From: a virus
Taxonomy: Duplodnaviria; Heunggongvirae; Uroviricota; Caudoviricetes
Strand: one strand, 5' to 3'
DNA: 6,019 bases
Virus record (IMG/VR): IMGVR_UViG_2541047433_000011
In this document: positions 1 through 4,986 of the stretch, in pieces
How positions within the stretch are numbered: the stretch's first letter is position 1
Layout of the letters: each line of letters begins with the position of its first letter
Translations under genes and position numbers: made by a program
The notes under the pieces: model-generated
What the model was told of the DNA's origin: nothing
The model's input: only the letters and a program-made list of their open reading frames with translations
Databases searched by the model: none

Positions 1-51
1 CACCATCCTTCATAACCACCCCAATACAAGATGATAACATTGGCTTACAAC

Positions 52-80
52 TCATAACAAAAGCAATTCAATGCCGTCAA
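52..80 (-). promoter_or_regulatory. Weak sigma70-like promoter candidate (TTGACG -35 at 80..75; poor -10 TTATGA/TATGAG at 17-18 bp)
   Basis: Read directly on the minus strand. The -35 is good but the -10 matches TATAAT at only 3-4 of 6 positions. It lies downstream of the terminator at 150..178 and upstream of a possible ORF running off the left edge. Confidence 0.2.
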
Positions 81-149
81 GAGGTTACAGGCTAAAAAAA
101 CTCTATTACATAGCAGCCAGCATGTTTACCGTACAAGTACAACTCAGGG

Positions 150-178
150 CATAAAAAAACCCACTCGGCAGCGGGTTT
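150..178 (-). terminator. Rho-independent terminator (tR'-like), minus strand
   Basis: Minus-strand RNA 5'-AAACCCGCU GCCG AGUGGGUUU-3' forms a 9-bp stem (one G.U pair) with a 4-nt loop, followed directly by a 7-U run (UUUUUUUAUG). On the plus strand the stem has an A-C mismatch and the U tract is interrupted, so it is mainly a minus-strand terminator. Confidence 0.6.
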
Positions 179-211
179 ATACATTTTTTACAACATACCA
201 AATTTGCATGA

Positions 212-240
212 AGTATATGGCTTTTAATCCAGTTTTGCAA
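212..240 (-). promoter_or_regulatory. Candidate late promoter (pR'-like): -35 TTGCAA (240..235), 17-bp spacer, -10 TATACT (217..212)
   Basis: Both hexamers match consensus at 5 of 6 positions with optimal 17-bp spacing. The promoter overlaps the Q stop codon (224..226). The predicted start near 205 would give a transcript of about 50 nt ending at the 150..178 terminator, the arrangement expected for a Q-utilisation module. A -10-like TATGTT sits at about +9..+14 of the predicted transcript and could act as a sigma-dependent pause element. Confidence 0.4.
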
Positions 241-913
241 TATTTTGCTGTAAAAATGCTGCCTTTTGTTTTGAACGTGTTCTCGTCACAAGCAATAAAG
301 CATCACTATCAAGCTGTAGAAAAATGTGCTTCATTGCAACCCAGCGTTCAGTAAATGTCTCGGACCAGTTTTTTGTTGTCACTCCCACCAATGATGCCAG
401 TGTCTGGTATTCATAGGCCTCACGCCCTGCAAGTTCGCTCTTCACATCCTGTGCAGCCAGCCAGATTAACGTCTTCAAACGTTCCAGTGTCTTACCTGCA
501 ATTTTCCTGGTACCCAACAGAGTCTTAAACTCGCTCCATGCCCACTGCGTTATGGTGACCTGATGTTCCCAGCGAACGCTTTCGCTGTAACACCAAAGCA
601 ACCATGCTTTCTGATGTTCATCGAGAGACAAAACCGCGCGGCGCCATGAAGAGGTTGAGAATTCAACCGGGCTGACCAAAGCAATGGATGAACCTTTTGC
701 GTACGACTGCTTACCGGAAATCGGCGGATTATCCAGCGTAATCATCCTGCCAGTTACCTCATCCAGAATGCGCGGCTTCTTTCGTTTGTATGTACCAGTA
801 TCAAATTGTGCATGCTCCAGCCAGGCTTCAAGCTGTCCTTTCGTTGCTCCGCTCAAATCAGCGGTAGCCACAATGAGTTGCTCGCGGACATACTGTAAAT
901 ATTGGGTATTCAT
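224..913 (-). CDS. Putative late-gene antiterminator Q-family protein (229 aa)
   Basis: ATG at 913..911 with an AAGGAG ribosome-binding site; the start overlaps the ylcG stop (ATGA). It is the last gene of the nin operon directly after rusA-ylcG and is followed by a promoter plus terminator, as expected for Q. The size fits the longer (about 230-250 aa) Q family, but I cannot confirm the family from sequence alone. Confidence 0.6.
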   Translation of the reverse strand: MNTQYLQYVREQLIVATADLSGATKGQLEAWLEHAQFDTGTYKRKKPRILDEVTGRMITLDNPPISGKQSYAKGSSIALVSPVEFSTSSWRRAVLSLDEHQKAWLLWCYSESVRWEHQVTITQWAWSEFKTLLGTRKIAGKTLERLKTLIWLAAQDVKSELAGREAYEYQTLASLVGVTTKNWSETFTERWVAMKHIFLQLDSDALLLVTRTRSKQKAAFLQQNIAKLD

Positions 914-2815: not shown

Positions 2816-4342
2816 TCAAAAATAAACCTCACCATCAACCATATATTTGAGAGCACTTATCGCCTGCTGGGCGGATATTACTTTCATTAAAGGATAGTGT
2901 TTAAAAACAATGCCATTCATAAAATAGATATCACAGGTTTTATTATCCGTATTAATTATGATTTTTTCGAATATTTTATAGGCAAGTGTACGGCATAACT
3001 CTCGTCCATTTTTACTGGTTAAGTCAATAGCATAAAAATCACTGAATGAATTTACACCTTTACTCTTCAAAGTTTTCAATGATACCAAAGCTCTTCGTAA
3101 TTCCTTATCTAATAGTCTTATTTTCTCTGCTATAGCGGTAACTTCAGGCGCGACAGACAATGCAACGATTAAATTATTAATTTTCATCTGAAGCTCAATA
3201 ATTTTTAACTCTAAAGTTTCATTAGCATCTTTCTTGTTTTCAACTGGTTGAATTTTGCTACAATTAAAAAGCAATTCATTAATGATATTATAATCAACCA
3301 AATCTCTCTTTATTGATGGCCTGTCACATCGATGTAATCTTCTCATCGGACAAACATAATAGCCATGCAAACTTCCAGATACCGCATGAACAATCATGGT
3401 ATTACCACAAGCCTCACACTTCATAACTGTTCGAAGTAGATTTATTAGCATAGGATTCTTGCTACTATTGCTAATACCAAAAGGTGCCAACCGAATTTCC
3501 TGTACAGCGTAAAACAAATCATCTGATATGACTCTGGGATAATAGCCAGCGATTTCACTTATCCCTTTCCCTCTTGCACGATATGAAGGTACGCATATAC
3601 CTATCAGAGCTTTATTCGCTAATAATTTTTCAATTACAGAAGGCCCCCATGCACTTTCTTTTCCTGAGAAATTCTTTACAGCATGATCATTTAAATACTT
3701 GGCTATTGCATTCAATGAGCGCCTTTCCATCCTGAGTTTAAAAATTAGCTCAATAGTTTTCACCCTGTCGGGGTCTGGAACAAAAGCCGTTCTTTTGTCA
3801 TCTAAGGAGAGCCATCTCGGACAAGACGCCGTCATAATCGTACCTGATTCCAGTGCATCCTGCCGTTTTTTCTTCCATGATAATTTAACCCGACTTGACT
3901 TTATCTCGCTTTCTTCATTTGCCCTTTGTGCTATAAGTATGGCTTTTATTAATGAATATGGCTCATTCAAAGAGTCAATATTATAGACTGTATTGTCGCA
4001 AAGAGTTATAACATCAATACCGTGATTCAAAATCAATTTCAGACGTTCAATCGCTTCACCGACTTTTTCTCTTGAAAGTCTGTCCAGACTTTCAACTAAC
4101 AATGTAGTTCCTGGCAATATATAACCATGCTCTATAGCATCTAAAAATTCCGAAAAAGCTCCTGATTGTGCATGCTTTCCTTTGAATGCACTTAATCCTA
4201 AATCTTCATATGTTATGGTATCAAGATAATAATCACTATTTACCTTTAACCATTCAGCAATAAGTCTTCTCTGTCGGTTTAATGAGTCGCCAGACATCTG
4301 ACCTGGTGATGAAAATCGCATATATGCTATGGCTTTTTTCAT
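2816..4342 (-). CDS. ybcK: Large serine recombinase YbcK (508 aa)
   Basis: The N-terminus AIAYMRFSSPGQ carries the resolvase catalytic-serine motif (compare Y-x-R-V-S-T-x-x-Q), and ESLDRLSR matches the resolvase DRLGR-type motif. A C-terminal Cys cluster (CEACG...YYVCPMRRLHRC) suggests a zinc ribbon, followed by a Lys/Glu/Leu-rich tail. Matches my recollection of DLP12 YbcK; AGGTG ribosome-binding site before ATG 4342. Confidence 0.9.
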   Translation of the reverse strand: MKKAIAYMRFSSPGQMSGDSLNRQRRLIAEWLKVNSDYYLDTITYEDLGLSAFKGKHAQSGAFSEFLDAIEHGYILPGTTLLVESLDRLSREKVGEAIERLKLILNHGIDVITLCDNTVYNIDSLNEPYSLIKAILIAQRANEESEIKSSRVKLSWKKKRQDALESGTIMTASCPRWLSLDDKRTAFVPDPDRVKTIELIFKLRMERRSLNAIAKYLNDHAVKNFSGKESAWGPSVIEKLLANKALIGICVPSYRARGKGISEIAGYYPRVISDDLFYAVQEIRLAPFGISNSSKNPMLINLLRTVMKCEACGNTMIVHAVSGSLHGYYVCPMRRLHRCDRPSIKRDLVDYNIINELLFNCSKIQPVENKKDANETLELKIIELQMKINNLIVALSVAPEVTAIAEKIRLLDKELRRALVSLKTLKSKGVNSFSDFYAIDLTSKNGRELCRTLAYKIFEKIIINTDNKTCDIYFMNGIVFKHYPLMKVISAQQAISALKYMVDGEVYF

Positions 4343-4586
4343 GGTGACACCTGCTAACTTATGCTTTTATAAACCTTAGTGGTGAGATATAATTTTTGTT
4401 TAATTTTTATTTAAAAAGACAATTACGATCACACTATCTTGAATATACAACAATAATCGTATTGCAATTTGCTTACGCAATAATCTTGAAGGCACAAAAG
4501 AATACACAAAAACTAAAAACATTAACAAAAGCGGCCCATGTAAAGATATGAACCGCCATATTGCAGTCTTTTAAAAGAAATTATTT
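4343..4586 (-). promoter_or_regulatory. AT-rich emrE-ybcK intergenic region, likely holding the ybcK promoter
   Basis: A 244-bp non-coding stretch that is extremely AT-rich and has many -10-like hexamers (TATATT, TATATC, TATAAA). No single promoter can be assigned with confidence. Just after the emrE stop there is a weak GCGG/CCGC stem followed by UUUUGUU on the minus strand (about 4524..4557). Confidence 0.3.
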
Positions 4587-4919
4587 TTAATGTGGTGTGC
4601 TTCGTGACAATAAATTAATAACCAACACACCGGCACAAATCAACATCATGCCTATAACGGCTGGCAGGTCCAGCCGTTGGCCGAAAAACCCCCATGATAG
4701 TAAGCTAATCAGGACAATACCGACTCCTGACCAGATAGCATAAGCAATCCCTGTAGGAATATAAGCCAGCGTCTGAGCTAATAACCAGAATGATGCACAA
4801 TAACAAATAATTGTACCAACAGATGGCCATAACCGTGTAAAACCTTCTGAAAACTTCATTAAGGTTGTACCAATGACCTCTGCAAGTATTGCACCACCAA
4901 GATAAATATAAGGGTTCAT
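4587..4919 (-). CDS. emrE: SMR-family multidrug efflux transporter EmrE (110 aa)
   Basis: Translation MNPYIYLGGAILAEVIGTTLMKFSEGFTRLWPSVGT... is recognised as EmrE, including the essential Glu14. The true start is ATG 4919..4917 with an AGGAAAG ribosome-binding site; the ORF-track start at 4973 is a TTG extension. Confidence 0.95.
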   Translation of the reverse strand: MNPYIYLGGAILAEVIGTTLMKFSEGFTRLWPSVGTIICYCASFWLLAQTLAYIPTGIAYAIWSGVGIVLISLLSWGFFGQRLDLPAVIGMMLICAGVLVINLLSRSTPH

Positions 4920-4934
4920 AACATATTCTTTCCT

Positions 4935-4969
4935 GTTCAAACTGGAGAGAATTGTACTACAGTTTGAAC
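4935..4969 (-). repeat. Perfect 10-bp inverted repeat with 15-bp spacer between ren and emrE
   Basis: GTTCAAACTG (4935..4944) and CAGTTTGAAC (4960..4969) are exact reverse complements. No U tract follows on either strand, so it is not an intrinsic terminator. It sits directly upstream of the emrE ribosome-binding site. Confidence 0.5.
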
Positions 4970-4986
4970 TCAACTCACCTGTTTCA

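Follow-up and report, generated by a model that had tools for sequence, protein, structure and literature searches.

What is the function of the 90 or so bases that follow the Q gene in this stretch of viral DNA, the whole of which (6,019 nucleotides) is referred to here as the window? The preliminary description had read them as a module of the pR'-qut-tR' kind, and this reading is supported by the Q82-family gene beside them, by homology to pR' of phage 82 and by conservation across the family. It is probable, at roughly 85% in our estimate, that they are the late-gene regulatory region (pR', qut and the first terminator) of a phage-82-type lambdoid prophage, in the allelic form of phage 434. 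Switches of this kind have been known since the late 1980s from work on phage 82, in which the late-gene region and a pause at +25 were described (Goliger & Roberts 1987/1989, as cited in PMC9191641), and the exact DNA, with its terminator marked, is already present in the phage 434 record. New are the assignments of promoter, start and pause element that we propose for the 434-type allele from its sequence, a family-wide architecture with two leader classes, and a link to the small RNA IsrJ.

The gene upstream of these bases, described earlier as Q-like, encodes a full-length protein of the Q82 family that matches the PF06323 profile from end to end (Table 1); this was the only Q profile matched, the lambda Q family (PF03589) giving no match to the window Q. 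The DNA of the Q region is about 95% identical to that of phage 82 Q (X92588.1) and of phage 434, and the window Q itself is about 94% identical to phage 82 Q. The -35 element and the first part of the 17-bp promoter spacer fall in its last six codons, ATT GCA AAA CTG GAT TAA; the Q stop codon (226-224, minus strand) lies within the spacer.

Table 1. Coordinates of the Q gene, the proposed regulatory elements and the downstream gene in the window
Feature	Position	Strand	Basis
Q antiterminator gene, 229 aa, Q82 family	224..913	minus	PF06323, E 8.6e-97, profile positions 1-216 of 220
pR' -35 element, TTGCAA	240-235 (-35..-30)	minus	sequence inspection and promoter scan
Promoter spacer, 17 bp, containing the Q stop codon; candidate Q-binding element (QBE)	218..234	minus	analogy with the placement of the 82 QBE
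pR' -10 element, TATACT	217-212	minus	sequence inspection and promoter scan
Predicted transcription start, A205, with initial AAA	205-203	minus	7 bases past the -10 element; AAA as in 82 pR'
Extended -10-like TGgTATGTT, predicted sigma70-dependent pause-inducing element	200-192 (+6..+14)	minus	register of 82 pR' (PMC5001585, PMC3326312)
Predicted pause position, G at +24 and U at +25	182 and 181	minus	register with 82 pR' (PMC5001585, PMC9191641)
Intrinsic terminator, tR' equivalent	150..178; hairpin 178-157 (+28..+49), T-run 159-153 (to +53)	minus	terminator scan and folding
Predicted short terminated leader RNA, about 53-55 nt	151..205	minus	predicted start and terminator
Start (ATG 40-38) of a 247-aa putative membrane protein gene, the first past the terminator and truncated at the edge of the window	1..40	minus	annotation of phage 434 and of an O157:H7 prophage whose DNA is identical

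The two promoter hexamers match the consensus at 9 of 12 positions in a promoter scan (4/6 in the -35 and 5/6 in the -10 element), and sites of this quality number 13 in the window against 12.6 expected. The coordinates, the spacing and the overlap with the last Q codons that had been proposed for a TTGCAA/17 bp/TATACT promoter therefore stand, but its description as near-consensus and strong is unjustified from sequence alone, because 9/12 sites occur there at chance level. A second promoter-like site (TTGTTA-18-TATCAT, 60-31, minus strand) would start transcription within the downstream open reading frame and is treated as chance. The open reading frames at 106-240 (minus strand, 44 aa) and 208-354 (plus strand, 48 aa) are mechanical overlaps without support.

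In phage 82 the QBE is located between the -35 and -10 elements, and the segment of 82PR' from -31 to +30 suffices for Q action (PMC4914094). By analogy, the window spacer may be the QBE of this allele. Among 24 diverse loci TTGCAA(AA) is almost invariant, and the -10 elements of relatives read TATATT, CATATT, GATATT or TACTTT at an unchanged spacing of 17 bp. Also conserved in the 24 loci, beyond the hexamers, are A at -29, -28 and -23, T at -21 and AA at -19/-18; these A/T positions of the spacer are, on the pattern of conservation, candidate contacts within the Q82 binding element. In distant members, the stretch equivalent to window 218-240 reads TTGCAAAATGCAACAAAATG.

The properties of 82 pR' provide the register in which the bases beyond the start can be read. 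Wild-type 82 pR' begins AAA (PMC5001585) and has a sigma70-dependent pause at +25/+26 (PMC9191641, PMC3326312). Its -10-like pause element is nearer consensus than that of lambda and includes an extended -10 TG (PMC5001585), a 'discriminator' at +15-17 reads GCC (PMC5001585, PMC3326312), and U occupies +25, with a one-base insertion at +18 shifting a G into the pause position (PMC5001585). The -10-like TATGTT that the preliminary description had placed at about +9 to +14 is found at exactly these positions (197-192, minus strand) and is preceded by TG at +6/+7 (200-199). All 24 representative loci have either TGnTAnnnT or AGnTAnnnT at +6..+14, and T at +23 and a pyrimidine at +25 are also conserved in relatives. 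By analogy with phage 82, pausing near +25 would be expected in the window allele. The discriminator is the one feature of 82 pR' among these that differs, being GTA (191-189) rather than GCC. Mutation of GCC at +15..+17 cut the 82 pause 2- to 5-fold (PMC5001585), and the window pause may therefore be weaker or shorter than that of 82. As GTC is found at the same place in locus L012 and in phage phiNP, GTA and GTC are read as allele variation that does not exclude membership of the family.

The record for phage 82 (X92588.1) ends at the Q stop codon, and the '82-type' label of the PhiR47_2 sequence rests on its match to published properties: both PhiR47_2 and the O157 icd-site prophage were taken as 82-type because they fit every published property of 82 pR', including GCC at +15-17. 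Both align with the window through +27. The window has in common with phage 82 the Q family, a -35 TTGCAA lying over the last Q codons, the 17-bp spacing, the AAA start, a TG-extended -10-like element at +6..+14, G+24/U+25, and an intrinsic terminator thereafter. It differs from the 82 type at about 20% of bases between -14 and +22, and the homology ends at about +27. As the terminator hairpin of the window starts at +28 and not at +50, the terminated RNA would be about 54 nt in length, compared with about 80 nt for the 82 type, and it does not have the 5' hairpin (around +13..+38) of long leaders.

Phage 434 (OL657226.1) is much closer. Window 1-260 (minus strand) is identical to it except for one extra T in the U-tract, and that phage has a Q82-like Q gene, a terminator annotated at the same place and the same downstream 247-aa membrane protein gene. 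The record annotates neither a pR' nor a pause element, marking instead a CII box and paQ on the other strand. The N-terminal two thirds of the window Q is partly 82-type, unlike that of phage 434. The T-run at 153-159 (minus strand) is polymorphic, with T7, T8 or T9 among otherwise identical copies from viral contigs and phage 434.

The terminator hairpin (178-157) has the arrangement AAACCCGCU/GCCG/AGUGGGUUU. It had been described as a 9-bp stem with a 7-U tract; hairpin and T-run are indeed present, but that description counts the same three U residues twice, and the structure is either a 9-bp stem (one G-U and four G-C pairs) with a 4-U tail or a 6-bp stem followed by seven U. The entry in the terminator scan has 9 pairs, 4 of them G-C, and is one of 9 terminator-like sites in the window, where 4.6 would be expected. 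The leader folds better than its shuffles (z = -3.1), the hairpin contributes about -12 kcal/mol, and it appears in both the minimum-free-energy and the centroid structure. RNA release would be expected near +52..+55, and the location given earlier, about 30-55 nt past the start, agrees with a hairpin at +28..+49 and a U-tract to +53. An extra 5' helix at +8..+27 in the minimum-free-energy fold was set aside; it consists of A-U and G-U pairs only, is not in the centroid and, by inspection, is not conserved in other compact leaders.

The elements of the module are thus present in one register and homologous to those of 82 pR', and their conservation extends across the family. Expressed as a composite motif (TTGMAA-N18-A-N3-T-N11-TGNTANNNT), they are found a single time in the window, whereas 200 shuffles gave no match, and the combination is far beyond chance. 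Of 110 loci (102 picked because they have a Q relative or match the window), 99 contain the same motif exactly once, in the orientation of Q and at the 3' end of that gene. In the first 20 loci compared, promoter and pause element were present in all and a terminator in 18. A group of 17 loci in which Q is 62-76% identical (from Citrobacter, Raoultella, Enterobacter, Leclercia, Franconibacter and others) consistently has the same -35 element, 17-bp spacing, -10 element, A start and TGnTAnnnT or AGnTAnnnT at +6..+14, and a terminator by our criteria in all except the pair L008/L009. Even at 31-48% Q identity, the whole arrangement is kept in five phages (Cronobacter phiES15, Hafnia yong2, E. 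coli LLS, Aeromonas pAEv1818 and Citrobacter phiNP), with hairpins that start at +25..+30; homologous hairpins (AACCCGCC...GCGGGTT) begin at +28..+30 in distant relatives. In three of these phages (yong2, LLS and phiNP) TTGCAAAA lies past the Q stop codon, and because TTGCAA is kept even there, conservation of the -35 element is not a coding effect. A limit of this arrangement is seen in N15, PY54 and VP882 (27-30% Q identity), which have no such module directly after Q; the architecture is therefore not universal for PF06323-like proteins.

A control scan searched viral contigs with the motif alone and yielded 120 usable matches, of which 74 were at most 900 nt downstream of a Q82-family gene and 46 had no such gene. 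A terminator within +130 accompanied 72 of the 74 matches behind a Q82-family gene and 3 of the 46 others (Fisher p = 2e-26), and two of these three were Gifsy-like isrJ-type leaders.

The preliminary description had also regarded the module as a compression of the lambda arrangement, from roughly 190 to roughly 50 nt. Relative to lambda this holds, but it is not special to this locus: because hairpin starts are bimodal among 59 distinct leaders (15 at +25..+34 and 37 at +45..+54), the Q82 family has two standard classes of leader, and the compact leader is one of them. The five distant relatives that were examined all belong to the compact class (hairpin start +25..+34). Eighty viral contigs with a Q that is 92-96% identical divide into 45 with the compact, 434-type leader, 26 with the 82-type leader and 7 with a third type that has no terminator within 120 nt; the junction between leaders in these 80 close relatives is always near +27. 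The Q82 switch is therefore a fixed architecture to +27 followed by interchangeable terminators in two length classes. Three viral contigs with the third leader type (L080, L058 and L086) have an 82-type qut to about +27 and no recognizable terminator within 120-220 nt.

Other features of the leaders and of the DNA beyond them vary by lineage. Long-class leaders (L002, L005-L007, L010 and L014-L021) have an extra 5' hairpin at about +13..+38, which uses +13..+18; it falls within the Rfam isrJ consensus structure and is lacking from the compact class. The arms of this hairpin are TGCCA/TGGCA, GTCG/CGAC or ATGCTGCC/GGCGGCAT in different lineages, changes that look compensatory in the sequences compared. 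tRNA genes follow the first terminator in L004, L005, L008, L011 and L021 (up to four in L008, and tRNA-Arg in Gifsy-1), an arrangement also of Stx phages, and matches to Rfam isrI are found further downstream in L006, L012 and Gifsy-1.

The genes around the module comprise DLP12-like P, ren, emrE, ybcK, ybcN, ninE, ybcO, rusA and ylcG, and the window probably belongs to a DLP12-like, defective prophage. As in DLP12, emrE (an SMR efflux pump) and ybcK (a 508-aa serine recombinase) are located between ren and the ninB-like ybcN, at 2816-4973 on the minus strand. The window ends about 205 nt past the start site, and the late genes are known from identical DNA elsewhere: in the O157:H7 prophage with identical DNA, genes for DUF3927/TciB, holin, lysozyme, Rz and terminase come behind the membrane protein gene. 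Window 1-330, which holds the Q 3' end and the leader, has matches in 774 of 5426 complete E. coli genomes, at 80% or more of its length in 618. Among complete genomes, the best match to the window as a whole is the O157:H7 icd-site prophage (99.1% identity over window 6019-191, 97% coverage), the megablast alignment to which stops at 191, within a divergent stretch. No complete E. coli genome was found to combine the window backbone with a 434-type leader.

The Q gene is itself composite. Nucleotides 1-233 and 342-436 agree at every base with the 82-type allele of the O157 icd-site prophage, and nucleotides 234-341 and 437-690, together with the leader, show the same full agreement with the 434 type; this patchwork of two alleles suggests gene conversion between resident prophages. 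The C-terminal 85 residues of Q, where there are about 14 differences between alleles, are co-inherited with the qut allele, which to judge from these sequences could reflect either linkage or DNA-binding specificity.

For the window allele, the start site, pause, Q binding and readthrough are predicted by analogy, and the sequence of events would be as follows. RNA polymerase containing sigma70 would initiate constitutively at A205, and the bound sigma70 would recognize the non-template TGgTATGTT at +6..+14, scrunching adding a few bases before a pause near +25 (T181). Without Q, the polymerase would escape, and the hairpin at +28..+49 and the U-tract would release an RNA of about 54 nt. With Q, the 229-aa protein would bind the promoter-spacer DNA and board the paused complex with the help of NusA, boarding by Q82 being NusA-assisted (PMC12360218). 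The Q-modified polymerase would then read through the terminator into the late genes, that is, the membrane protein gene and then the lysis genes. The pR'-qut-tR' region of lambda, source of the 6S RNA, and the pR'-tR' region of Stx phages, source of StxS, follow the logic that is proposed for the window (PMC9388147, PMC7547250): a late promoter that fires constitutively, a sigma-dependent promoter-proximal pause, loading of Q, a terminator that is likewise constitutive, and a short RNA as by-product. Their Q families are unrelated to Q82 (PF03589 in lambda), and there is no sequence similarity; the lambda pause is at +16/17 and the lambda leader is about 194 nt long, and pR'-qut-tR' of lambda is analogous in function only.

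The late promoters of lambda, 21, phi80, 82 and P22 give rise to short RNAs, and StxS, an RNA of this kind, is functional (Sy et al., PMC7547250). IsrJ, an experimentally detected 74-nt RNA of Salmonella with reported invasion and translocation phenotypes (PMC2330248), appears from its sequence to be the leader RNA of a Q82-type pR'. The Rfam family isrJ (RF01393) gives an exact fit to long-class leaders that begins three bases ahead of the AAA start and extends to the terminator, with scores of 44-80 bits in L019, L006, L007 and L020 and 100 bits in Gifsy-1; the 5' end used for IsrJ (Rfam/Padalon-Brauch) is likewise 3 nt upstream of the equivalent start A. IsrJ of Gifsy-1 has a promoter homologous to that of the window (TTGCAA-17-TATATT, AAATCTGATAT...) and ends at the first terminator; unlike the window leader, it belongs to the long class, with the extra 5' hairpin and an unrelated terminator. 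Homology of the window leader to isrJ is limited to the first 27 nt or so, and isrJ was absent among the window matches even at E <= 10 (gathering score 37 bits). No Rfam family matched the leader; scores for Phe leader (24 bits), STnc240 (23.5), tsr31 and others are far below gathering and represent hairpin-driven noise. A literature search for the leader sequence found it in no paper.

In Gifsy-1 (L021; NC_010392.1, reverse complement, 4013-4121) isrJ is preceded by ATTGCAAAACTGGATTAA-N11-TATATT, which comprises the last six Q codons (ATTGCAAAACTGGATTAA) and the promoter. An IsrK/C4-like antirepressor (orf-anrP) cassette lies between the Q82-family gene STM2617 (AntQ) and the isrJ promoter, and AntQ diverges from the Q82 family after about residue 218. 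The IsrJ, IsrK and AntQ literature that we found does not name the isrJ promoter as the cognate qut site of AntQ.

Several other explanations have to be weighed against a late-gene switch. The hairpin might merely end the Q (early) operon, the promoter-like and -10-like hexamers being chance occurrences. It is ordinary for an operon to have a terminator behind its last gene, and promoter-like sites of such quality are indeed at chance frequency in the window; the absence of the composite motif from the shuffles, its retention in one register by 99 of 110 loci (in distant relatives also at non-coding positions), and the match to a promoter studied in vitro (PMC5001585) nevertheless make this explanation extremely unlikely. 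It is extremely unlikely, too, that the TTGC-N6-TTGC box on the plus strand (235-248, TTGCAATATTTTGC) is a CII-dependent antisense promoter, paQ. A CII site and a paQ -35 signal are marked at this place in the phage 434 record, and the box, which fits TTGY-N6-TTGY, is present in the window; but the pattern is one of low specificity, with three such boxes annotated within 4 kb of the 434 record, its upstream TTGC half is not conserved in relatives (e.g. CAAGATATTGCAA and CAGAGTATTGCAA), and no -10-like hexamer is seen by eye at the usual distance. The comparison of sequences thus disfavors both of these explanations through conservation, and the two that follow are compatible with the identity of the module.

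A switch that is recognizable in its elements may drive nothing, and the module could be a non-functional relic in this prophage. The DLP12-like context, a kind that is often defective, the patchwork Q and a combination of sequences not found in complete E. coli genomes, where the best match has 97% coverage and stops at 191, would all suit such a fate. Set against them are a Q that is full length with an end-to-end family match, cis elements that are all intact and identical to those of the viable phage 434, and the fact that the C-terminal 85 residues of Q and qut are both of 434 type, and we consider loss of function unlikely. The remaining explanation, which partly overlaps the preferred one, is that the short RNA is itself the main selected function, a constitutive trans-acting prophage small RNA like StxS or IsrJ, with the switch only as its origin. 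That by-products of pR'-tR' can become Hfq-dependent regulators is demonstrated by StxS (PMC7547250), the long-class homologue IsrJ has its reported phenotypes (PMC2330248), and the leader ends in a terminator hairpin and U tail in the manner of typical small RNAs. However, leaders past +27 are mosaic and unrelated between the classes, conservation resides in DNA elements (-35, -10 and pause element) and not in a seed-like stretch of RNA, and the window leader has no match in Rfam; a selected RNA as the principal function is thus improbable. A related proposal, by analogy, is that the leader of about 54 nt may be a constitutive prophage small RNA with a trans role in its E. coli host, in parallel with IsrJ and StxS, and that the compact class may represent the minimal natural Q82 cassette; this we put forward tentatively and consider unlikely.

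Under the late-gene reading, a widespread group of E. coli prophages has its late switch located, with exact coordinates predicted for the start, pause and terminator. The mechanism of the Q82 family is an acknowledged open point (PMC9388147), and the PDB holds no structure of any Q82-family protein; a minimal cassette and covarying alleles of Q and qut are useful for these reasons. If the compact module is indeed a minimal natural cassette, consisting of a promoter, a pause at +25 and a hairpin from +28, it would offer a clean substrate for the Q82 closed-nozzle question left by Yin et al. 2022. As a by-product, the comparison offers a reading of the Salmonella small RNA IsrJ as the leader transcript of a Q82-type switch.
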